A stretch of 64,000 nucleotides of DNA. It comes from Escherichia coli (lineage in GTDB: Bacteria > Pseudomonadota > Gammaproteobacteria > Enterobacterales > Enterobacteriaceae). Below, piece by piece: positions 6,348-50,525 of this stretch (positions within the stretch are counted from its first letter, which is position 1; each line of letters begins with the position of its first letter). The translations under genes were made by a program, and so were the position numbers. The notes below the pieces were generated by a model. It was not told where the DNA came from, searched no databases, and saw nothing but the letters and a program-made list of their open reading frames with translations. The DNA is taken from assembly GCF_003991155.1 (NCBI RefSeq), contig NZ_CP031295.1; one strand, given 5' to 3'.

Positions 6348-6976
6348 GATGCCGGGGGCTGATTGCCCTGCTGATATGGGGGCAGAGTGTGGCCGCCGCC
6401 GATCTTGGTACCTGGGGCGATCTGTGGCCGGTAAAGGAGCCGGACATGCTGACGGTGATCATGCAGCGCCTGACGGCACTGGAGCAGTCCGGTGAGATGG
6501 GCCGGAAAATGGATGCCTTTAAGGAGCGGGTGATCCGCAACAGTCTGCGGCCCCCTGCCGTGCCCGGTATCGGACGCACGGAGAAATACGGCAGCCGGTT
6601 GTTTGACCCGTCCGTCAGACTGGCTGCGGATATCCGGGATAACGAAGGGCGGGTGTTTGCCCGTCAGGGTGAAGTGATGAATCCGCTGCAGTATGTTCCT
6701 TTTAACCAGACGCTGTATTTCATCAATGGCGATGATCCGGCGCAGGTGGCCTGGATGAAACGCCAGACGCCGCCCACACTGGAGAGCAAAATTATCCTCG
6801 TGCAGGGCAGTATCCCGGAGATGCAGAAAGCGCTGGACAGCCGTATTTACTTTGACCAGAACGGTGTGCTCTGCCAGCGCCTCGGCATTGATCAGGTCCC
6901 GGCACGGGTGAGCGCCGTTCCCGGCGATCGCTTCCTGAAGGTGGAATTTATTCCGGCAGAGGAGGGCAGAAAATGA
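6344..6976 (+). CDS. traW: TraW pilus assembly protein (internal ATG at 6344 used instead of the longer ORF start at 6230)
   Basis: MRCRGLIALLIWGQSVAA signal peptide; ATGA overlap with trbI stop. Confidence 0.8.
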   Translation: MRCRGLIALLIWGQSVAAADLGTWGDLWPVKEPDMLTVIMQRLTALEQSGEMGRKMDAFKERVIRNSLRPPAVPGIGRTEKYGSRLFDPSVRLAADIRDNEGRVFARQGEVMNPLQYVPFNQTLYFINGDDPAQVAWMKRQTPPTLESKIILVQGSIPEMQKALDSRIYFDQNGVLCQRLGIDQVPARVSAVPGDRFLKVEFIPAEEGRK

Positions 6977-7965
6977 AGCGAGGCCTGTGGCTGCTGATGT
7001 TCTTCCTTCTCGCCGGTCATGTCCCTGCGGCGTCTGCGGATTCTGCCTGTGAGGGGCGTTTTGTAAACCCGATCACGGATATCTGCTGGAGCTGTATTTT
7101 CCCGCTCTCGCTGGGCAGTATCAAAGTCAGTCAGGGTAAGGTCCCCGACACGGCGAACCCGTCGATGCCCATTCAGATTTGTCCGGCACCGCCGCCGCTG
7201 TTCAGGCGTATCGGGCTGGCCATTGGTTACTGGGAGCCGATGGCGCTGACGGACGTCACCCGGTCACCGGGATGCATGGTTAACCTGGGCTTCAGCCTGC
7301 CGGCTTTTGGTAAAACGGCACAGGGAACGGCGAAAAAGGATGAGAAGCAGGTGAACGGGGCGTTCTATCACGTTCACTGGTACAAATACCCGCTGACGTA
7401 CTGGCTGAACATCATCACATCGCTGGGCTGTCTGGAAGGTGGTGACCTGGATATCGCTTATCTTTCTGAAATTGACCCCACCTGGACGGACAGCAGCCTG
7501 ACCACCATTCTCAATCCGGAAGCTGTCATCTTTGCCAATCCGATAGCACAGGGGGCCTGTGCAGCAGATGCCATTGCCAGCGCCTTTAATATGCCTCTCG
7601 ATGTTCTGTTCTGGTGTGCCGGTTCGCAGGGCAGTATGTACCCGTTCAATGGCTGGGTGAGTAATGAGTCCAGTCCGTTGCAGTCCTCCCTGCTGGTCAG
7701 TGAACGCATGGCGTTCAAGCTGCACCGTCAGGGCATGATTATGGAAACCATCGGGAAAAATAACGCCGTCTGTAATGAATATCCGTCCCCAATCCTGCCC
7801 AAAGAACGCTGGCGTTACCAGATGGTGAATATGTATCCGGACAGCGGGCAGTGCCACCCGTTCGGGCGCAGCGTGACCCGCTGGGAAACCGGGAAAAATC
7901 CGCCCAACACAAAGAAAAACTTCGGCTACCTGATGTGGCGTAAACGTAACTGTGTCTTCCTGTGA
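6973..7965 (+). CDS. traU: TraU pilus assembly/DNA transfer protein
   Basis: 330-aa ORF with signal peptide, overlaps traW stop. Confidence 0.85.
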   Translation: MKRGLWLLMFFLLAGHVPAASADSACEGRFVNPITDICWSCIFPLSLGSIKVSQGKVPDTANPSMPIQICPAPPPLFRRIGLAIGYWEPMALTDVTRSPGCMVNLGFSLPAFGKTAQGTAKKDEKQVNGAFYHVHWYKYPLTYWLNIITSLGCLEGGDLDIAYLSEIDPTWTDSSLTTILNPEAVIFANPIAQGACAADAIASAFNMPLDVLFWCAGSQGSMYPFNGWVSNESSPLQSSLLVSERMAFKLHRQGMIMETIGKNNAVCNEYPSPILPKERWRYQMVNMYPDSGQCHPFGRSVTRWETGKNPPNTKKNFGYLMWRKRNCVFL

Positions 7966-7972
7966 GGTGAAT

Positions 7973-8606
7973 GATGAAGCTGAGTATGAAATCTCTGGCA
8001 GCACTGCTGATGATGCTGAACGGGGCGGTTATGGCGTCAGAAAACGTGAACACTCCTGAAAACCGCCAGTTCCTGAAGCAGCAGGAAAATTTAAGCAGAC
8101 AACTGCGTGAAAACCTGACCATCAGCTGAAAGCCGGGCGGAGAAGCAGGTGCTGGAAACCCCTTCAGCGTTCAGATAACCATTTCTGGATGAGCTGGTTC
8201 GTAAACAGCAGGCTTCGCAGGACGGGAAACCCGGCAGGGTGCTCTGTATTTTGTGTCGTTTTCCATTCCCGAAGAGGGGCTGAAACGAATGCTGGGCGAA
8301 ACCCGGCACTACGGTATACCCGCCACACTGCGGGGCATGGTGAACAATGACCTGAAGACCACCGCTGAAGCCGTGCTGTCCCTGGTGAAAGACGGCGCGA
8401 CTGATGGTGTTCAGATCGACCCGACGCTGTTTTCACAGTACGGCATTCGCAGTGTACCGGCACTGGTGGTGTTCTGCAGTCATGGATACGACATCATCCG
8501 GGGAAACCTGCGGGTCGGCCAGGCGCTGGAGAAAGTGGCCGCCACGGGTGACTGCCGGCAGGTGGCTCATGATTTACTGGCAGGGAAAGGAGATTCCGGG
8601 AAATGA
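7973..8606 (+). pseudogene. trbC: trbC, disrupted by several frameshifts (signal-peptide N-terminus 7973-8129 stops early; TrbC-like C-terminus in another frame 8253-8606)
   Basis: N-terminal MMKLSMKSLAALLMMLNGAVMA ORF ends after 52 codons; recognisable TrbC C-terminal sequence resumes in a different frame; indels sit at homopolymer runs. Confidence 0.6.
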
Positions 8607-10411
8607 AACGTATTTTACCTCTGATACTGGCTCTGGTTGCCGGCATGGCACAGGCTGACAGCAACAGTGATTACCGGGCCGGTTCTGATTTTGCTCACCA
8701 GATCAAAGGGCAGGGAAGCAGCAGTATTCAGGGCTTTAAGCCACAGGAGAGTATCCCCGGCTATAACGCGAATCCGGACGAGACAAAATATTACGGTGGC
8801 GTGACTGCCGGCGGGGATGGCGGCCTGAAAAATGACGGCACCACGGAATGGGCGACCGGTGAAACCGGAAAAACCATTACAGAGTCATTCATGAACAAGC
8901 CGAAAGACATTCTTTCACCGGATGCACCGTTTATCCAGACCGGCAGGGATGTGGTGAACCGGGCTGACAGCATTGTGGGAAACACCGGGCAGCAGTGCAG
9001 TGCGCAGGAGATTAGCAGGAGTGAATACACGAATTACACCTGTGAGCGGGATTTACAGGTGGAGCAGTACTGCACACGAACTGCCCGTATGGAGCTGCAG
9101 GGGAGTACCACATGGGAAACCCGGACGCTGGAGTATGAAATGAGTCAGCTACCTGCACGTGAAGTGAATGGTCAGTATGTTGTCTCCATTACCTCTCCCG
9201 TTACCGGTGAAATTGTCGATGCGCATTACAGCTGGAGTCGTACTTACTTGCAGAAGAGTGTACCTATGACAATTACAGTACTGGGAACCCCACTGAGCTG
9301 GAATGCCAAATACTCAGCAGATGCCTCATTTACACCAGTACAGAAAACACTGACTGCCGGTGTGGCTTTTACGTCATCTCACCCCGTCCGGGTCGGGAAT
9401 ACAAAATTCAAACGTCATACGGCAATGAAGCTGCGTCTGGTTGTCAGGGTAAAAAAAGCCTCGTACACCCCGTATGTTGTCTGGTCTGAAAGCTGCCCGT
9501 TCAGCAAGGAGCAGGGGAAACTGACAAAAACAGAATGTACGGAGGCTGGCGGGAACAGGACGCTGGTGAAAGACGGTCAGTCATACAGCATGTACCAGAG
9601 CTGCTGGGCATACCGGGACACGTATGTCACGCAGTCAGCAGACAAGGGAACCTGTCAGACCTACACCGACAATCCTGCCTGTACCCTGGTGTCACACCAG
9701 TGTGCCTTTTACTCCGAAGAAGGTGCCTGTCTGCATGAATATGCCACGTACTCCTGTGAGTCAAAAACATCCGGGAAAGTGATGGTCTGTGGGGGAGACG
9801 TATTCTGTCTCGATGGCGAATGCGATAAGGCTCAGAGCGGGCAGAGTAATGATTTTGCCGAAGCCGTTTCTCAGCTGGCGGCACTGGCCGCAGCAGGTAA
9901 GGATGTTGCGGCGCTGAACGGGGGGGATGTCCGTGCTTTCACCGGTCAGGCGAAATTTTGTAAGAAGGCTGCAGCCGGATACAGCAACTGCTGTAAGGAC
10001 AGCGGCTGGGGACAGGATATCGGGCTGGCCAAATGCAGCAGTGATGAAAAGGCCCTGGCTAAAGCAAAATCAAACAAACTGACCGTCAGCGTCGGGGAGT
10101 TCTGTTCGAAGAAAGTGCTGGGTGTCTGTCTGGAGAAAAAACGCAGCTACTGTCAGTTTGATTCGAAGCTGGCGCAGATAGTCCAGCAGCAGGGGCGCAA
10201 CGGTCAGTTGCGTATCAGTTTTGGTAGTGCGAAGCATCCTGACTGTCGGGGGATTACGGTTGATGAGCTGCAGAAAATTCAGTTCAACAGACTGGATTTC
10301 ACTAACTTCTACGAAGACCTGATGAATAACCAGAAAATCCCGGACAGTGGCGTTCTGACGCAGAAAGTGAAAGAGCAGATTGCTGACCAGCTGAAACAGG
10401 CAGGACAGTAA
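8603..10411 (+). CDS. traN: TraN mating-pair stabilisation outer-membrane protein
   Basis: 602-aa cysteine-rich secreted protein in F gene order. Confidence 0.85.
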   Translation: MKRILPLILALVAGMAQADSNSDYRAGSDFAHQIKGQGSSSIQGFKPQESIPGYNANPDETKYYGGVTAGGDGGLKNDGTTEWATGETGKTITESFMNKPKDILSPDAPFIQTGRDVVNRADSIVGNTGQQCSAQEISRSEYTNYTCERDLQVEQYCTRTARMELQGSTTWETRTLEYEMSQLPAREVNGQYVVSITSPVTGEIVDAHYSWSRTYLQKSVPMTITVLGTPLSWNAKYSADASFTPVQKTLTAGVAFTSSHPVRVGNTKFKRHTAMKLRLVVRVKKASYTPYVVWSESCPFSKEQGKLTKTECTEAGGNRTLVKDGQSYSMYQSCWAYRDTYVTQSADKGTCQTYTDNPACTLVSHQCAFYSEEGACLHEYATYSCESKTSGKVMVCGGDVFCLDGECDKAQSGQSNDFAEAVSQLAALAAAGKDVAALNGGDVRAFTGQAKFCKKAAAGYSNCCKDSGWGQDIGLAKCSSDEKALAKAKSNKLTVSVGEFCSKKVLGVCLEKKRSYCQFDSKLAQIVQQQGRNGQLRISFGSAKHPDCRGITVDELQKIQFNRLDFTNFYEDLMNNQKIPDSGVLTQKVKEQIADQLKQAGQ

Positions 10412-11446: not shown

Positions 11447-11815
11447 ATGAGTGAAGATTATTTGAAAATGTTTACAGGTGTTGTTCTGTTAATATTTGTC
11501 ATTATTGCCGGTTATTTCTTTTCTGAGCGTAATGACAGGAAAATGTTTCTCCTGAGCTCACTGGTTTTCCTTGTTATTAATATCGCGTGTTTATATGTGC
11601 TTACCGCCAGTCTCTGGTTTCTGTGTGGTGCAATTATGAGTCAGGGCGCAGCACTGGTTGTTTCAATAGTTGCGGCCGCATTACCGGACGTTACGAGCTT
11701 CGACAGGTTCAGAAGAATATTTATCTGTATTGTGTTGTCATCGGTATGGTCCGGAGTGATGTGGTTTTTTATAAGGGGGGCTTATGACAGGCTAAGTCAT
11801 ATAAAACGGTCATAA
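11447..11815 (+). CDS. trbA: TrbA membrane protein
   Basis: 122-aa hydrophobic ORF in F position. Confidence 0.55.
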   Translation: MSEDYLKMFTGVVLLIFVIIAGYFFSERNDRKMFLLSSLVFLVINIACLYVLTASLWFLCGAIMSQGAALVVSIVAAALPDVTSFDRFRRIFICIVLSSVWSGVMWFFIRGAYDRLSHIKRS

Positions 11816-19366: not shown

Positions 19367-21507
19367 ATGAGTTTTAACGCAAAGGATATGACCCAGGGCG
19401 GTCAGATTGCGTCCATGCGTATCCGCATGTTCAGTCAGATCGCCAATATCATACTTTACTGCCTGTTTATTTTTTTCTGGATCCTAGTTGGTCTGGTTTT
19501 ATGGGTAAAAATAAGCTGGCAGACGTTTGTGAATGGCTGCATTTACTGGTGGTGCACCACGCTGGAAGGCATGCGGGATTTAATCAGGTCCCAGCCGGTC
19601 TATGAGATCCAGTATTACGGCAAAACCTTCCGGATGAACGCGGCTCAGGTACTGCATGATAAATATATGATCTGGTGCGGAGAGCAGCTATGGTCCGCAT
19701 TCGTTCTGGCCACAGTTGTGGCACTGGTTATTGCCTGATTACCTTCTTTGTTGTCTCACGGATTCTGGGGCGTCAGGGTAAACAACAGAGCGAAAATGAA
19801 GTCACAGGTGGTCGTCAGCTGACAGACAATCCGAAAGACGTTGCCCGGATGCTGAAAAAGACGGCAAGGACTCCGATATACGGATTGGCGACCTGCCGAT
19901 TATCCGGGATTCCGAAATCAGAACTTCTGTCTGCACGGCACGGTCGGGGCCGGTAAGTCGGAAGTTATCCGTCGTCTGGCCAACTACGCCCGTCAGCGTG
20001 GAGATATGGTGGTGATTTATGACCGTTCAGGGAATTTGTTAAAAGTTACTATGATCCCTCCATCGATAAAATCCTGAATCCGCTGGATGCCCGCTGTGCC
20101 GCACGGGATTTGTGGAAGAGTGCCTGACACAGCCAGATTTTGATAATACCGCAAATACTCTGATCCCGATGGGGACAAAAGAGGACCCGTTCTGGCAGGG
20201 TTCAGGACGTACCATTTTTGCGGAAGCGGCATACCTGATGCGTAATGACCCCAACCGCAGCTACAGCAAACTGGTGGACACACTGCTTTCCATCAAAATT
20301 GAAAAGCTGCGTACCTTCCTGCGTAATTCACCGGCGGCCAACCTGGTGGAAGAGAAAATCGAGAAAACGGCCATATCCATCCGTGCTGTGCTGACCAACT
20401 ACGTGAAAGCCATCCGTTACCTGCAGGGGATTGAGCATAACGGTGAGTCTTTACCATCCGTGACTGGATGCGTGGTGTCCGGAAGATCAGAAAAACGGCT
20501 GGCTGTTTATCTCGTCGAATGCCGACACCCATGCCTCCCTGAAGCCGGTGATCTCCATGTGGCTGTCCATTGCCATTCGTGGTCTGCTGGCAATGGGAGA
20601 AAACCGTAACCGTCGTGTGTGGTTTTCTGTGATGAGCTACCCACGTTACACAAACTGCCGGACTGGTGGAGATCCTGCCGGAAGCCCGTAAGTTCGGTGG
20701 CTGTTATGTGTTTGGTATCCAGTCTATGCCCAGCTGGAAGATATCTACGGTGAAAGCGGCTGCCACGCTGTTTGACGTCATGAACACCCGTGCCTTTTTC
20801 GTTCTCCCAGCCATAAGATTGCAGAGTTCGCTGCCGGTGAGATTGGTGAGAAAGAGCACCTGAAAGCCAGCGAGCAGTATTCCTACGGTGCTGATCCGGT
20901 ACGTGACGGGGTATCGACCGGTAAGGATATGGAGCGTCAGACGCTGGTCAGTTATTCCGACATTCAGTCTCTGCCGGATCTGACCTGTTATGTCACCCTG
21001 CCCGGACCGTATCCGGCAGTAAAACTCTCCCTGAAATATCAGACACGACCGAAGGTCGCTCCGGAGTTTATTCCGCGTGACATCAACCCGGAAATGGAGA
21101 ACCGTCTGAGTGCCGTACTTGCCGCAAGGGAAGCAGAAGGTCGTCAGATGGCCAGCCTCTTCGAACCGGATGTCCCGGAGGTTGTTTCCGGAGAAGACGT
21201 GACTCAGGCTGAACAGCCGCAACAGCCGGTGTCTCCTGCCATCAACGATAAGAAGTCAGATGCAGGTGTGAATGTTCCGGCAGGGGGGATCGAGCAGGAG
21301 CTGAAAATGAAACCGGAAGAAGAGATGGAACAGCAACTGCCACCCGGGATCAGTGAATCCGGTGAAGTGGTGGATATGGCCGTTTATGAGGCATGGCAAC
21401 GGGAGCAGAATCCGGATATCCAGCAGAAGATGCAGCGTCGTGAAGAGGTGAACATCAATGTGCACCGGGAGCGCGGGGAGGATGTTGAGCCGGGAGATGA
21501 TTTCTGA
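19367..21507 (+). pseudogene. traD: traD coupling protein, fragmented into at least 5 frames by small indels
   Basis: TraD N-terminus ([12 protein letters not shown]...), middle and QQP-rich C-terminus (...EPGDDF) are all present but in different frames (ORFs 19367-19738, 19675-19956, 20112-20609, 20666-20863, 20929-21507). Confidence 0.7.
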
Positions 21508-21515
21508 TGAACAGG

Positions 21516-21914
21516 TCAGCTCCAGTCTTCAATTCTCAGACCGTCCACACGTTCAAATTCCCGGGTGTTATTAGTCACAATAATCAGTCCCCGACTGCGG
21601 GCATGACCTGCGATCATTTGATCAAATGGCCCGACAGGGCGTCCCTGACGGGCAAGTTCTGCTCTTATCTGGCCGCTGTGTGTGGCTGCGGCAGCGTCGT
21701 AATCCAGAACATCAATGCGGGAAACAAATCCCTCGATCACAGCGAGATTACGTTCAGGCATCTGGCTTTTTTCTGCACCATATATCAGCTCCATCAGGGT
21801 GACCGAACTGATACACATTCTCCCCTGGTTCAGGTTAAAACGCTCCCTGACGCTGGCGGGTTTGTTCTTTATCGTGAAAATGCAGATGTTGGTATCGAGC
21901 ATAAACTTCAGCAT
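21516..21914 (-). CDS. vapC: VapC PIN-domain toxin
   Basis: 132 aa, N-terminal MLKFMLDTNICIF typical of PIN domains; overlaps upstream antitoxin gene. Confidence 0.8.
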   Translation of the reverse strand: MLKFMLDTNICIFTIKNKPASVRERFNLNQGRMCISSVTLMELIYGAEKSQMPERNLAVIEGFVSRIDVLDYDAAAATHSGQIRAELARQGRPVGPFDQMIAGHARSRGLIIVTNNTREFERVDGLRIEDWS

Positions 21915-22141
21915 CAGAATGACTCCCTTTCCTGCATGCCGGGCTGTTCCCTGTTATCCATAAAATCGGCGCTGACGTTGTGTCCGTCGAACCATTCGTC
22001 CCATGTCTCTCCGGCTGGCGTAATGATTCTGGTTCGTCCGACAGCAATCACTTCAACGCGTTTTACGTTTTCCGGCAATGCAACCGCTTTTGGCAGTCTG
22101 ACCGCCTGGCTGCGGTTGCTGAAAAATACGGTGGTTTCCAT
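21914..22141 (-). CDS. vapB: VapB antitoxin (AbrB/SpoVT-like)
   Basis: 75-aa ORF immediately upstream of and overlapping vapC. Confidence 0.75.
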   Translation of the reverse strand: METTVFFSNRSQAVRLPKAVALPENVKRVEVIAVGRTRIITPAGETWDEWFDGHNVSADFMDNREQPGMQERESF

Positions 22142-22222
22142 TATTTGCCTCCTTATGTGGATATGTCTTGTGTATATCCATTGTGGGATTGATACCGGGA
22201 TATGTCAAAGGGATATACGTTT

Positions 22223-33500: not shown

Positions 33501-34129
33501 ACATTCATTTAAAAAGAAAACCTATTCACTGCCTGTCCTGTGGACAGACAGATATGCACCTCCCACCGTAAACGGCGGGCCCCAACCGGAGCCACTTTAG
33601 TTACAACACACAAAACCAACCTCCAGAAAAACCCCGAACCAGCGCAGAACTGAAACCACAAAGCCCCTCCCTCATAACTGAAAAGCGGCCCCGCCCCGGC
33701 CCTTCGGGCCGGAACAGAGTCGCTTTTAATTATGAATGTTGTAACTACATCTTCATCGCTGTCAGTCTTCTCGCTGGAAGTTCTCAGTACACGCTCGTAA
33801 GCGGCCCTCACGGCCCGCTAACGCGGAGATACGCCCCGACTTCGGGTAAACCCTCGTCGGGACCACTCCGACCGCGCACAGAAGCTCTCTCATGGCTGAA
33901 AGCGGGTATGGTCTGGCAGGGCTGGGGATGGGTAAGGTGAAATCTATCAATCAGTACCGGCTTACGCCGGGCTTCGGCGGTTTTACTCCTGTATCATATG
34001 AAACAACAGAGTGCCGCCTTCCATGCCGCTGATGCGGCATATCCTGGTAACGATATCTGAATTGTTATACATGTGTATATACGTGGTAATGACAAAAATA
34101 GGACAAGTTAAAAATTTACAGGCGATGCA

Positions 34130-34780
34130 ATGATTCAAACACGTAATCAATATCTGCAGTTTATGCTGGTTATGCTGGCTGCATGGGGCATTAGTTGGGG
34201 AGCCAGATTTGTCATGGAGCAGGCCGTTCTGCTTTATGGATCAGGAAAAAACTATTTGTTCTTCAGTCATGGTACTGTTCTGATGTACCTGCTGTGTGTT
34301 TTCCTGGTATACCGCCGTTGGATAGCTCCGCTACCGGTCGTTGGTCAGCTGCGCAACGTTGGCGTACCGTGGCTGGTCGGTGCGATGGCCGTGGTGTATG
34401 TCGGTGTATTTCTGCTCGGTAAGGCGCTGGCTCTGCCTGCTGAGCCATTTATGACGAAACTTTTTGCCGATAAGTCCATACCTGACGTGATCCTGACGTT
34501 GCTGACCATCTTTATCCTTGCCCCGTTGAATGAGGAAACGCTGTTCCGGGGGATTATGCTGAACGTCTTCCGTTCACGGTACTGCTGGACGATGTGGCTG
34601 GGGGCGCTGATAACGTCGTTGTTGTTCGTCGCCGCGCACAGCCAGTATCAGAACCTGCTGACACTGGCAGAACTGTTCGGTGGGTTGATTACATCAGTGG
34701 CCAGGATCAGAAGTGGTGGCCTGCTGCTGCCGGTATTGCTGCATATGGAAGCAACCACGCTGGGTTTACTGTTTGGTTGA
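34130..34780 (+). CDS. CPBP-family intramembrane protease (tir-like)
   Basis: 216-aa polytopic protein with EExxxR-like (NEETLFRG) and HxxxH-like motifs. Confidence 0.65.
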   Translation: MIQTRNQYLQFMLVMLAAWGISWGARFVMEQAVLLYGSGKNYLFFSHGTVLMYLLCVFLVYRRWIAPLPVVGQLRNVGVPWLVGAMAVVYVGVFLLGKALALPAEPFMTKLFADKSIPDVILTLLTIFILAPLNEETLFRGIMLNVFRSRYCWTMWLGALITSLLFVAAHSQYQNLLTLAELFGGLITSVARIRSGGLLLPVLLHMEATTLGLLFG

Positions 34781-36722: not shown

Positions 36723-37542
36723 GGCACTGTTGCAAAGTTAGCGATGAGGCAGCCTTTTGTCTTATTCAAAGGCCTTACATTTCAAAAACTCTGCTTACCA
36801 GGCGCATTTCGCCCAGGGGATCACCATAATAAAATGCTGAGGCCTGGCCTTTGCGTAGTGCACGCATCACCTCAATACCTTTGATGGTGGCGTAAGCCGT
36901 CTTCATGGATTTAAATCCCAGCGTGGCGCCGATTATCCGTTTCAGTTTGCCATGATCGCATTCAATCACGTTGTTCCGGTACTTAATCTGTCGGTGTTCA
37001 ACGTCAGACGGGCACCGGCCTTCGCGTTTGAGCAGAGCAAGCGCGCGACCATAGGCGGGCGCTTTATCCGTGTTGATGAATCGCGGGATCTGCCACTTCT
37101 TCACGTTGTTGAGGATTTTACCCAGAAACCGGTATGCAGCTTTGCTGTTACGACGGGAGGAGAGATAAAAATCGACAGTGCGGCCCCGGCTGTCGACGGC
37201 CCGGTACAGATACGCCCAGCGGCCATTGACCTTCACGTAGGTTTCATCCATGTGCCACGGGCAAAGATCGGAAGGGTTACGCCAGTACCAGCGCAGCCGT
37301 TTTTCCATTTCAGGCGCATAACGCTGAACCCAGCGGTAAATCGTGGAGTGATCGACATTCACTCCGCGTTCAGCCAGCATCTCCTGCAGCTCACGGTAAC
37401 TGATGCCGTATTTGCAGTACCAGCGTACGGCCCACAGAATGATGTCACGCTGAAAATGCCGGCCTTTGAATGGGTTCATGTGCAGCTCCATCAGCAAAAG
37501 GGGATGATAAGTTTATCACCACCGACTATTTGCAACAGTGCC
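36723..37542 (-). mobile_element. tnp26: IS26 copy 1 (820 bp; tnp26 36775-37479, minus strand)
   Basis: 14-bp terminal inverted repeats GGCACTGTTGCAAA at both ends; intact 234-aa transposase from MNPFKGRHF. Confidence 0.9.
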
Positions 37543-39043
37543 ACTTCGACGACTACCTGCTGCCGGCCGAGAAGTTCGCCGCACTCAAGCGCGAGCAGGC
37601 CCTGCCCCTGGCGATCAACCCGAACAGCGACCAGTACCTGGAAGAGCGTTTGCAGCTGCTGGACGAGCAGTTGGCCACCGTCACCCGCCTGGCCAAGGAC
37701 AACGAGCTGCCCGATGCCATCCTCACCGAGTCAGGGCTGAAAATCACCCCGCTGGATGCGGCGGTGCCGGATCGGGCGCAGGCGCTGATCGACCAAACCA
37801 GCCAGTTACTGCCGCGCATCAAGATCACCGAACTGCTGATGGACGTGGACGACTGGACGGGCTTCAGCCGCCACTTCACCCACTTGAAGGACGGGGCCGA
37901 GGCCAAAGACAGGACGTTGCTGCTGTCCGCAATCCTCGGTGATGCGATCAACCTCGGGCTGACCAAGATGGCCGAGTCGAGCCCCGGCCTGACCTACGCC
38001 AAGCTGTCCTGGCTGCAAGCCTGGCACATCCGCGACGAAACCTATTCGGCGGCCTTGGCCGAGCTGGTCAACCACCAGTATCGCCACGCCTTTGCCGCCC
38101 ACTGGGGCGACGGCACGACCTCATCCTCCGATGGCCAGCGCTTCCGCGCGGGTGGCCGGGGCGAGAGCACCGGGCACGTCAACCAAGTACGGTAGCGAGC
38201 GGGACGGCTGTTCTATACCCATATCTCCGACCAGTACGCGCCGTTCAGCACCCGCGTGGTGAATGTCGGCGTCCGCGATTCCACCTATGTGCTCGACGGC
38301 CTGCTGTACCACGAGTCCGACCTGCGGATCGAGGCACTACACCGACACGGCCGGCTTCACCGATCACGTCTTTGCCCTGATGCACCTGCTAGGCTTCCGC
38401 TTCGCGCCGCGCATCCGCGACCTCGGCGAAACCAAGCTGTACGTGCCGCAGGGCGTGCAAGCTACCCGACGTTGCGCCCGCTGATCGGCGGCACCCTGAA
38501 CATCAAGCACGTGCGTGCCCACTGGGACGACATCCTGCGCGGCCAGCTCGATCAAGCAGGGCACCGTCACCGCCTCGCTGATGCTGCGCAAGCTCGGCAG
38601 CTACCCGCGCCAGAACGGACTGGCCGTGGCCCTGCGCGAGCTGGGCCGGATCGAGCGCACGCTGTTCATCCTGGACTGGCTGCAAAGTGTTGAACTGCGC
38701 CGCCGCGTGCATGCCGGCCTGAACAAAGGTGAGGCGCGCAACTCGCTGGCGAGGCGGTGTTCTTCAACCGCCTTGGGGAAATCAGGATCGGAGCTTCGAG
38801 CAGCAGCGCTACGGCCAGCGGCCTCAACACGGTGACGGCGGCTATCGTGCTGTGGAACACGGGTACACGGAACGCCACCCGGGGTTGGTCGAGGCCGGCA
38901 AGCCGGTGGACGGCGAGCTGCTGCAATTCCTGTCGCCGCTGGGCTGGGAGCACATCAACCTAACCGGCGATTACGTCTGGCGGCAGAGCCGCAGACTGGA
39001 AGACGGGAAGTTTCGGCCCTTACGGATGCCCGGAAAACCTTAG
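37543..39043 (+). pseudogene. tnpA: Tn1721/Tn21-subgroup tnpA 3' fragment (copy A), 5'-truncated by IS26, with several frameshifts
   Basis: Tn3-family transposase sequence spread over at least 4 frames; ends at the Tn1721 IR. Confidence 0.75.
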
Positions 39044-42739: not shown

Positions 42740-44320
42740 ATACTCTTCGCCGAGCGAAAAGTTGGGGAACAGCACGGGCCGGCCGCGCAAGGCGTGCTGG
42801 CAGCCGTGCAGACCCTGCGTGAGATGAACGCCGACAACCTGCGCAAGGTGCCGGCCGATGCACCCACGGCCTTCATCAAGCCGCGCTGGAAGCCGCTGGT
42901 GATCACCCCGGAAGGCCTCGACCGGAAATTCTACGAAATCTGCGCCCTGTCCGAGCTGAAGAACGCCCTGCGCTCCGGCGACATCTGGGTCAAGGCTCGC
43001 GGCAGTTCCGCGACTTCGACGACTACCTGCTGCCGGCCGAGAAGTTCGCCGCACTCAAGCGCGAGCAGGCCTGCGGCGATCAACCCGAACAGCGACCAGT
43101 ACACGGAAGAGCGTTTGCAGCTGCTGGACGAGCAGTTGGCCACCGTCACCCGCGGCCAGGACGGCAAGCTGCCCGATGCCATCCTCACCGAGTCAGGGCT
43201 GAAAATCACCCCGCTGGATGCGTGCCGGATCGGCGCAGGCGCTGATCGACCAAACCAGCCAGGTTACTGCCGCGCATCAAGATCACCGAACTGCTGATGG
43301 ACGTGGACGACTGGACGGGCTTCAGCCGCCACTTCACCCACTTGAAGGACGGGCCGAGGCCAAAGACAGGACGTTGCTGCTGTCCGCAATCCTCGGTGAT
43401 GCGATCAGCCCGGGCTGACCAAGATGGCCGAGCCGAGCCCGGCCTGACTGCCAAGCTGTCGTCGCGGCAAGCACGGCACATCCGCGACGAAACCTATTCG
43501 GCGGCCTTGGCCGAGCTGGTCAACCACCAGTATCGCCACGCCTTTGCCGCCCACTGGGGCGACGGCGACCTCATCCTCCGATGGCCAGCGCTTCCGCGCG
43601 GGTGGCCGGGCGAGAGCACCGGCACGTCAACCCGAATACGGTAGCGAGCCGGGACGGCTGTTCTACCCATATCTCCGACCAGTACGCGCCGTTCAGCACC
43701 CGCGTGGTGAATGTCGGCGTCCGCGATTCCACCTATGTGCTCGACGGCCTGCTGTACCACGGTCCGACCTGCGGATCGAGGAGCACTACACCGACACGGC
43801 CGGCCCGCGATCACGTCTTTTGCCCTGATGCACCTGCTGGGCTTCCGCTTCGCGCCGCGCATCCGCGACCTCGGCGAAACCAAGCTGTACGTGCCGCAGG
43901 GCGTGCAAGCCTACCCGACGTTGCGCCCGCTGATCGGCGGCACCCTGAACATCAAGCACGTGCGTGCCCACTGGGACGACATCCTGCGCCTGGCCAGCTC
44001 GATCAAGCAGGGCACCGTCACCGCCTCGCTGATGCTGCGCAAGCTCGGCAGCTACCCGCCAGAACGGACTGGCCGTGGCCCTGCGCGAGCTGGGCGGATC
44101 GAGCACGCTGTTCATCTGGACTGGCTGCAAAGTGTTGAACTGCGCCGCCGCGTGCATGCCGGCCTGAACAAAGGTGAGGCGCGCAACTCGCTGGCGGGGG
44201 TGTTCTTCAACCGCCTTGGGGAAATCAGGGATCGGAGCTTCGAGCAGCAGCGCTACCGGGCCAGCGGCCTCAACCTGGTGACGGCGGCTATCGTGCTGTG
44301 GAACACGGTGTACCTGGAAC
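42740..44320 (+). pseudogene. tnpA: Second copy (copy B) of Tn1721-type tnpA 3' segment, heavily affected by indels/substitutions, 3'-truncated by IS26
   Basis: Same transposase sequence as 37543-39043 but extends further 5' and is broken into many frames; 5' boundary approximate. Confidence 0.65.
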
Positions 44321-45140
44321 GGCACTGTTGCAAAGTTAGCGATGAGGCAGCCTTTTGTCTTATTCAAAGGCCTTACATTTCAAAAACTCTGCTTACCAGG
44401 CGCATTTCGCCCAGGGGATCACCATAATAAAATGCTGAGGCCTGGCCTTTTGCGTAGTGCACGCATCACCTCAATACCTTTGATGGTGGCGTAAGCCGTC
44501 TTCATGGATTTAAATCCCAGCGTGGCGCCGATTATCCGTTTCAGTTTGCCATGATCGCATTCAATCACGTTGTTCCGGTACTTAATCTGTCGGTGTTCAA
44601 CGTCAGACGGCACACGGCCTTCGCGTTTGAGCAGAGCAAGCGCGCGACCATAGGCGGGCGCTTTATCCGTGTTGATGAATCGCGGGATCTGCCACTTCTT
44701 CACGTTGTTGAGGATTTTACCCAGAAACCGGTATGCAGCTTTGCTGTTACGACGGGAGGAGAGATAAAATCGACAGTGCGGCCCCGGCTGTCGACGGCCC
44801 GGTACAGATACGCCCAGCGGCCATTGACCTTCACGTAGGTTTCATCCATGTGCCACGGGCAAAGATCGGAAGGGTTACGCCAGTACCAGCGCAGCCGTTT
44901 TTCCATTTCAGGCGCATAACGCTGAACCCAGCGGTAAATCGTGGAGTGATCGACATTCACTCCGCGTTCAGCCAGCATCTCCTGCAGCTCACGGTAACTG
45001 ATGCCGTATTTGCAGTACCAGCGTACGGCCCACAGAATGATGTCACGCTGAAAATGCCGGCCTTTGAATGGGTTCATGTGCAGCTCCATCAGCAAAAGGG
45101 GATGATAAGTTTATCACCACCGACTATTTGCAACAGTGCC
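44321..45140 (-). mobile_element. tnp26: IS26 copy 2 with frameshifted transposase
   Basis: Terminal IRs present; tnp26 split into ORFs 44419-44703 and 44700-45095 by single-base indels relative to copies 1 and 3. Confidence 0.8.
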
Positions 45141-45479
45141 CGCCCGCCTATGGTCGCGCGCTTGCTCTGCTCAAACGCGAAGGCCGGTGCCCGTCTGACG
45201 TTGAACACCGACAGATTAAGTACCGGAACAACGTGATTGAATGCGATCATGGCAAACTGAAACGGATAATCGGCGCCACGCTGGGATTTAAATCCATGAA
45301 GACGGCTTACGCCACCATCAAAGGTATTGAGGTGATGCGTGCACTACGCAAAGGCCAGGCCTCAGCATTTTATTATGGTGATCCCCTGGGCGAAATGCGC
45401 CTGGTAAGCAGAGTTTTTGAAATGTAAGGCCTTTGAATAAGACAAAAGGCTGCCTCATCGCTAACTTTGCAACAGTGCC
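45141..45479 (+). mobile_element. Partial IS26 (3' 339 bp with IRR), inverted relative to copy 2
   Basis: tnp26 C-terminal coding sequence plus terminal IR TTTGCAACAGTGCC at 45466-45479. Confidence 0.75.
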
Positions 45480-45616
45480 AATTTATGAGTAAAGGATTAT
45501 GTCCACGATAAGCACCTGGGTCGATTCCTGGGAGGCGGCCATGAGGGTAGGGAAGCGCCGTCCCGTCAAGTCAGCGTAATGCTCTGCCAGTGTTACAACC
45601 AATTAACCAATTCTGA

Positions 45617-46519: not shown

Positions 46520-47339
46520 GGCACTGTTGCAAATAGTCGGTGGTGATAAACTTATCATCCCCTTTTGCTGATGGAGCTGCACATGAACCCATTCAAAGGC
46601 CGGCATTTTCAGCGTGACATCATTCTGTGGGCCGTACGCTGGTACTGCAAATACGGCATCAGTTACCGTGAGCTGCAGGAGATGCTGGCTGAACGCGGAG
46701 TGAATGTCGATCACTCCACGATTTACCGCTGGGTTCAGCGTTATGCGCCTGAAATGGAAAAACGGCTGCGCTGGTACTGGCGTAACCCTTCCGATCTTTG
46801 CCCGTGGCACATGGATGAAACCTACGTGAAGGTCAATGGCCGCTGGGCGTATCTGTACCGGGCCGTCGACAGCCGGGGCCGCACTGTCGATTTTTATATC
46901 TCCTCCCGTCGTAACAGCAAAGCTGCATACCGGTTTCTGGGTAAAATCCTCAACAACGTGAAGAAGTGGCAGATCCCGCGATTCATCAACACGGATAAAG
47001 CGCCCGCCTATGGTCGCGCGCTTGCTCTGCTCAAACGCGAAGGCCGGTGCCCGTCTGACGTTGAACACCGACAGATTAAGTACCGGAACAACGTGATTGA
47101 ATGCGATCATGGCAAACTGAAACGGATAATCGGCGCCACGCTGGGATTTAAATCCATGAAGACGGCTTACGCCACCATCAAAGGTATTGAGGTGATGCGT
47201 GCACTACGCAAAGGCCAGGCCTCAGCATTTTATTATGGTGATCCCCTGGGCGAAATGCGCCTGGTAAGCAGAGTTTTTGAAATGTAAGGCCTTTGAATAA
47301 GACAAAAGGCTGCCTCATCGCTAACTTTGCAACAGTGCC
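46520..47339 (+). mobile_element. tnp26: IS26 copy 3 (tnp26 46583-47287)
   Basis: 14-bp IRs at both ends, intact transposase. Confidence 0.9.
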
Positions 47340-47660
47340 ACGAACAGCACCTTCAGATAATGGTATCCAGTCAATTTGTGCCTTCATAATACCAGTCATC
47401 GCTCCATGTCGTTCCGGAGAGCACCACACCATTCCTTCAGACCAGCGAACCAGTTCACGCAACTCCATAACTTTTGGATGTGATTCCGGTGCATCATCAG
47501 GAAGTGGAAGGCCAGATGGATTAAAAATGCGGACGTCTGCGCCCATTGCAGTTAACAAACGGCCTGCTTCCTCTGTCGCCAGTCGACTGTATGAGCGCTC
47601 ACGAACTGAGCCATAAAGCATTAGAATACGAGGTGGGTGAGATATTGCCGGTATCCCCAT
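47340..47660 (-). pseudogene. arsH: arsH (NADPH-dependent FMN reductase) 5' fragment truncated by IS26
   Basis: N-terminal ~107 codons with ...[13 protein letters not shown]...[24 protein letters not shown] then IS26 boundary. Confidence 0.6.
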
Positions 47661-50238: not shown

Positions 50239-50525
50239 AAAAACCTCTACGATGTGTTCTTATATAATAATATATATCATATTTTCACGATTAACATAAT
50301 ATCTTCGTTAAGAAAACAACAGAGCAAAATTTGTTTTTTTTTGACAGGCATGAAATGAGCCAGCATAATTATATTAATTATTATCCCAAATGAGTTTTTG
50401 TATTTGCTCATTCGGGATGGTTGGATATTTTAAGTTATATCTACTGTATCATTCTCAGGTAATCGTTCCATTAAATCAGAAACTACGGGCTGTAACCAGT
50501 CAGTGACTTCACTCACATACTGATG

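Follow-up and report, generated by a model that had tools for sequence, protein, structure and literature searches.

The periplasmic protein TrbC is made as 212 aa and processed to 191 aa; an N-terminal signal peptide of about 21 aa serves its export to the periplasm (review PMC7555446). Both assembly of the F pilus and conjugation depend on TrbC, whose C-terminal domain interacts with the TraW N-terminal domain (PMC7555446, a review that cites Maneewannakul 1991 and Shala-Lawrence 2018). The E. coli plasmid pPK8241-82kb encodes an F-type TrbC (WP_000777691.1) in the gene order traU-trbC-traN, where the trbC stop and the traN start overlap. The plasmid pO83_CORR (E. coli NRG 857C, NC_017659.1) has a related IncF backbone that bears resistance and colicin modules, and its conjugation genes are not all intact. 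A further point of comparison is the residual error of Oxford Nanopore (ONT) consensus sequences, of which roughly 70% in Enterobacteriaceae lies in Dcm motifs (CCAGG/CCTGG), with homopolymer length next in importance (Wick et al. 2019, PMC6591954).

Here, we describe a trbC locus within a 64,000-nucleotide stretch of E. coli DNA (the window). Overall, the window is a plasmid backbone of the IncF type with multi-resistance and colicin functions and has many close relatives among E. coli plasmids; on it lie the tra operon, an IncFII repA, a Tn1721-like element with tet(A), IS26 copies, and pif genes. Like pPK8241-82kb, the window has the order traU-trbC-traN, the overlap between the trbC stop and the traN start, and a TrbC with the same signal-peptide-like N-terminus and C-terminal domain; its trbC is identical to that of pPK8241-82kb at all 633 positions present. 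It differs in lacking six bases between 8109 and 8230, and hence has no 212-codon ORF as written. Whereas the defect of pO83_CORR is a clean multi-gene deletion from traK to traG, that of the window consists of clusters of single-base deletions at error-prone motifs. In this respect the window resembles residual ONT consensus errors in Enterobacteriaceae DNA, which likewise concentrate at CCAGG/CCTGG and in homopolymer lengths (PMC6591954). Unlike an unpolished ONT assembly, in which errors occur throughout, the window shows them in a few patches, with a local density of 1–5% as opposed to ~0.5% for a deep consensus, and the platform is in our case read from the error pattern. The trbC lesion is present in the sequence as given and, judging from that sequence, the organism itself almost certainly lacks it.

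Reading frames at the trbC locus

Positions 7974–8606 on the + strand are an F-type trbC with frame interruptions in the sequence as written. The locus and its neighbors are arranged as follows:

6973–7965, + strand: traU, intact, 330 aa, 330/330 profile positions
7974–8606, + strand: trbC (type-F pilin assembly protein), 633 nt versus 639 nt expected, 100% identity to pPK8241 trbC apart from six gaps
7974–8109, + strand: trbC N-terminal segment in the correct frame, with a signal-peptide-like start MKLSMKSLAALLMMLNGAVMA; the ORF as written continues to a false stop at 8127–8129
8110–8134, + strand: trbC middle piece 1, KPDHQLKA
8135–8158, + strand: trbC middle piece 2, AEKQVLE
8159–8184, + strand: trbC middle piece 3, PLQRSDNHF
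8185–8229, + strand: trbC middle piece 4, LDELVRKQQASQDGKP
8230–8606, + strand: trbC C-terminal segment (RQGALYFVSF...DSGK*), back in the N-terminal frame; its TGA (8604–8606) overlaps the traN ATG at 8603
8603–10411, + strand: traN, intact, 602 aa, 602/602 profile positions

The original prediction had recognized this region as trbC, and family profiles bear this out. Both end ORFs match NF010290 (NCBIfam), the 52-aa N-terminal ORF at profile positions 1–47 and the 117-aa C-terminal ORF (8253–8606) at positions 96–212, and the latter reaches 119 bits against the TIGR02742 equivalog, above its cut-off of 66.45. In the family profile search, pPK8241 trbC in its intact form, which equals the restored trbC of the window, reaches 445 bits (cut-off 333). 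The order traU-trbC-traN, which is also that of pPK8241 and pCREC-544_1, is the position expected of a type-F TrbC, and the flanking genes proved intact, as had been thought. The single ~212-codon ORF that characterizes type-F TrbC is missing from the sequence as written and appears only once six bases are put back.

The N-terminal ORF stops at 8127–8129, which is 52 codons from the ATG at 7971, the count originally given, or 51 from the reference start; the RefSeq-style start is the ATG at 7974 rather than position 7973, where the gene had been taken to begin. Ahead of the first frame change, 45 residues are correct TrbC, and the N-terminus (MKLSMKSLAALLMMLNGAVMA/SE) is identical to the reference and signal-peptide-like by its sequence. 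The frame assignments beyond this point need revision. The middle of the gene, said to be readable in a single third frame, alternates between two other frames in four pieces of 24–45 nt. The C-terminal ~117 codons, placed earlier in yet another frame, share the frame of the N-terminus: the six deletions amount to a net -6, and positions 7971, 7974, and 8253 each equal 0 mod 3.

Six deletions at homopolymers and Dcm motifs

Alignment with the intact 639-nt trbC of pPK8241-82kb (661 aligned bases) resolved the single-base indels originally noted in this gene into six 1-base deletions, with 0 substitutions:

8110–8113, + strand, junction 8109/8110: deletion 1, A4 in the window versus A5 in all close references
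8133–8136, + strand, junction 8134/8135: deletion 2, CCGG in the window versus CCTGG (Dcm motif) in the references
8156–8162, + strand, junction 8158/8159: deletions 3 and 4, AAACCCC in the window versus AAAACCCCC in the references (A4 to A3, C5 to C4)
8182–8188, + strand, junction 8184/8185: deletion 5, TTTCTGG in the window versus TTTCCTGG in the references (C lost from a CCTGG Dcm motif)
8230–8232, + strand, junction 8229/8230: deletion 6, C3 in the window versus C4 in the references
8087–8248, unstranded: maximal extent of the low-quality patch, at most 162 bp, flanked by intact runs (A4 at 8086, T4 at 8249)

Putting the six bases back in silico yields pPK8241 trbC exactly, together with its 212-aa product (annotated as WP_000777691.1); the original prediction had said that one continuous ~212-codon ORF in a corrected sequence would speak against the split, and such an ORF is obtained, by computation only. 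Between 8100 and 8235, every homopolymer of at least 4 bases is one base short (4/4) and both CCTGG (Dcm) sites are damaged (2/2), whereas none of the six 3-base runs is altered (0/6) and the remaining bases are likewise unaltered. The homopolymers adjoining the patch are intact (A4 at 8086, T4 at 8249 and 8259, G4 at 8276), and in control stretches only 3 of 839 homopolymers of at least 4 bases differ. By simple arithmetic, the chance of six changes all falling on the ~28 error-prone bases of the 136-base patch is ~(28/136)^6, or ~8e-5. The error density, 6 in about 130 nt, exceeds the ~0.5% error of a deep ONT consensus (Wick, Judd and Holt 2019, Genome Biol 20:129, PMC6591954).

We searched for the same allele in other records. 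Megablast found the trbC lesions in none of 4257 matching plasmid records and in none of 2850 matching E. coli complete-genome records, with a best identity of 99.1% among the matches listed in each case; the top matches listed span 807 nt each versus 801 nt in the window. A 45-nt pattern across two of the deletions had 0 exact matches among genomes representing GTDB species, one per species, and exact look-up of the 52-aa and 117-aa fragment proteins in the gene-position index found neither.

Patches of the same kind and their probable origin

Against pCREC-544_1, window positions 1–36997 (~36 kb) show 22 deleted bases and 1 inserted base. The deleted bases are divided among trbC (6), traD (13), and a single deletion at 34678–34681 (3), so that indels cluster in trbC and traD only, with one G-run insertion and one 3-base deletion besides. 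This restriction to a few patches rules out homopolymer noise across the whole assembly. Further patches lie in transposon and insertion-sequence repeats:

19731–20799, + strand: traD patch, 13 single-base deletions specific to the window and CCTGG changed to CACGG at two sites (19757, 20102)
38184–38880, unstranded: patch in Tn1721-like repeat copy A, 16 deleted bases, CCWGG damaged at 5/6 sites
42993–44318, unstranded: patch in Tn1721-like repeat copy B, 39 deleted bases, CCWGG damaged at 7/10 sites
44321–45140, unstranded: IS26 copy with 4 gap positions and 0 substitutions relative to the IS26 copy at 36723–37542

The original prediction had also held that traD shares the problem of trbC, and the same class of error is indeed present there. 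The traD deletions are seen against three different references; they grow denser toward 20799 and then cease. We considered the traD substitutions as errors too and rejected this: the gene is a mosaic, its 5′ part like pSA186_3 and its 3′ part like pCREC-544_1, and the substitutions are mostly natural allele mosaicism, leaving the 13 deletions and the two altered CCTGG sites, now CACGG, as the only differences specific to the window.

The repeats permit a comparison within the window. Its 1.35-kb Tn1721-like segment occurs in two direct copies (37540–38878 and 43010–44325) that are just 94.5% alike, and transposase reading frames in them are broken by the same type of error. Relative to the reference, 17 lesions are confined to copy A and 63 to copy B, with 5 common to both. 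From the sequences of the two copies, these differing sets of lesions are best read as independent noise and not inheritance, because inherited mutations would be common to both. The window also holds three full IS26 copies (36723–37542, 44321–45140, and 46520–47340) and a partial one (45141–45481), of which 36723–37542 has 100% identity to the reference IS26 and 46520–47340 is likewise cleaner than 44321–45140. Repeats within the window do not underlie every patch; they account for those in the transposon and IS26, and no repeat of the trbC or traD patch was found within the 64-kb window.

To describe the errors by motif, we pooled four measured patches: trbC, traD, and Tn1721-like copies A and B. 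Within them, 18 of 23 CCWGG sites are altered, versus 2 of 129 outside (Fisher p = 6e-17); a conservative count that drops two traD sites, which are allele differences shared with reference L003, gives 16/21. Six of the altered sites across the measured patches show one and the same change, CCTGG to CACGG, and 74 bases are deleted versus 2 inserted. Both marks of a nanopore-type patch are present, namely enrichment at Dcm CCWGG sites and homopolymer-length errors biased to deletions. Dam (GATC) sites, examined as a second methylation signature, showed no clear effect, with 0/17 affected in the transposon patches and 3/8 in traD.

Together, these observations suggest that trbC is very probably intact on the real plasmid, its six missing bases being uncorrected long-read consensus errors, most likely from Oxford Nanopore. 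We favor this reading because the trbC lesions are exclusively deletions, fall exclusively at homopolymers of at least 4 bases and at Dcm CCTGG sites, and lie in a patch of at most 162 bp, and because the same class of error recurs in other patches, among them transposon and IS26 repeats, and none of the other public records searched carries the lesions. The question of real loss versus consensus error, which the original prediction had left open, is thereby tilted strongly toward the latter. We infer the artefactual status of the lesions from their pattern in the sequence, and the platform and the reason for escape from polishing in the same manner.

In this model, native enterobacterial DNA would carry 5-methylcytosine at Dcm sites (CCWGG), and nanopore basecallers would systematically miscall these modified sites as well as homopolymers of at least 4 bases. 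The stretch 8087–8248 would then be of long-read quality amid an assembly otherwise of short-read-level accuracy. If the assembly was hybrid or polished with short reads, errors would persist solely where short reads failed to correct them; candidate places include repeats, segments shared with another replicon, and gaps in the short-read graph. Being repeats, the transposon and IS26 patches could have escaped correction in this way. For trbC and traD, the cause could be a further copy of the segment in another part of the genome, or a spot where short-read coverage or the short-read graph breaks. The density of the trbC patch, being above ~0.5%, would imply very low long-read depth or an old basecaller.

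Another source of artefact is unlikely, though it too would leave the real gene intact: the low-quality tail of a single Sanger read across a gap, PacBio CLR at low coverage, or homopolymer undercalls by 454 or Ion Torrent. The lesions are all deletions, and in trbC four of six are undercalled homopolymers, of a sort that several platforms make; the manner in which the traD deletions densify toward 20799 and then end is also as in the tail of a single read. Against this, the CCWGG-specific damage and the recurrent CCTGG to CACGG change point to a reading of native methylated DNA. The templates read by Sanger, 454, and Ion Torrent sequencing are unmethylated copies, and PacBio basecalls are hardly affected by 5mC. 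To our knowledge, Dcm methylation is invisible to methods that read amplified or copied DNA, and given this, the specificity for CCWGG would therefore indicate long reads of native DNA.

That trbC, together with traD, has genuinely been lost by frameshifts, leaving a plasmid with no F pilus and no self-transfer in a host resistant to F-specific phages, we regard as quite improbable. It has some appeal, as TrbC as written ends after 45 correct residues, assembly of the F pilus and conjugation depend on the protein (review PMC7555446), traD is broken as another transfer gene, and tra-defective F-like plasmids exist (pO83_CORR lacks traK-traG). Several lines of evidence argue against it. First, the gene is otherwise 100% identical to its relative and has six indels and 0 substitutions within at most 162 bp, at exactly four homopolymers and two Dcm motifs; the mixture of substitutions and indels, irrespective of error motifs, that would mark a pseudogene is not seen. 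Second, the same class of lesion occurs in IS26 and in the Tn1721-like repeats, with different lesions in each Tn1721-like copy. Third, no part of the allele was found in the plasmid, E. coli, and GTDB searches, so that inheritance of the lesions in independent records, the other mark of a pseudogene, is lacking among the 4257 plasmid records, the 2850 E. coli records, and the GTDB representatives. Finally, after a first frameshift there would be no selection to cluster five more within the next 120 nt.

Another reading is that the lesions are real and stem from a localized burst of -1 frameshift mutagenesis, such as an error-prone repair synthesis tract, that inactivated trbC and traD; we consider this more improbable still. 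Were it true, a resistance and colicin F-like plasmid would have become fixed as non-conjugative, without a pilus or sensitivity to F-specific phages, and the coincidence with Dcm sites would imply a methylation-linked mutational process other than the known deamination of 5mC. Deamination itself we rejected as a source of real Dcm-linked mutations: it predicts C to T transitions, of which none were seen, the changes being deletions and CT to AC. Expression of trbC through ribosomal frameshifting or transcriptional slippage at homopolymer runs can be dismissed, as it would require five or six successive recoding events within 120 nt in a protein that thousands of relatives encode in one unbroken frame; although some lesions sit in A and C runs, which are slippage-type sites, and the net -6 restores the original frame, two lesions lie outside runs and the identical pattern recurs in genes unrelated to trbC as well as in repeats of IS and transposon origin.

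Consensus error, our preferred reading, bears mainly on quality control, and its biological import is slight, trbC being well known and very probably intact. Taken at face value, the record yields trbC and traD pseudogenes and a plasmid called non-conjugative, which would understate its potential for transfer. Such a false pseudogene call would mislead an assessment of mobility, because a TrbC truly cut off after residue 45 would mean the loss of both piliation and transfer, and the plasmid at risk of this miscall carries tet(A) and other mobile resistance modules. The test by Dcm motifs and homopolymers takes as inputs only the sequence and one close relative, and can flag such patches in other records.

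Isolated differences outside the patches

A few differences stand apart from the patches. At 11775, in the 3′ end of trbA (11447–11815), a G run has one base more than its counterpart in pCREC-544_1, which alters the C-terminal tail of TrbA (122 aa versus 115 aa in pCREC-544_1); in this comparison with one reference, the insertion may be a real polymorphism or a homopolymer error. The 3-base deletion at 34678–34681, seen against three references (L002, L003, and L004), lies near a gene for a CPBP-family endopeptidase downstream of repA; it is isolated, outside the error patches, and possibly real. Relative to p3682_FQ, isolated single-base insertions occur at 50334 and 61402, one adding a T to a long T run and the other adding a G. 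Between traD and traI, pCREC-544_1 has a vapBC toxin-antitoxin pair on the opposite strand (33534–34159) that is absent in classical F, and the window aligns through this region, at ~21500–22200 by correspondence (approximate coordinates).
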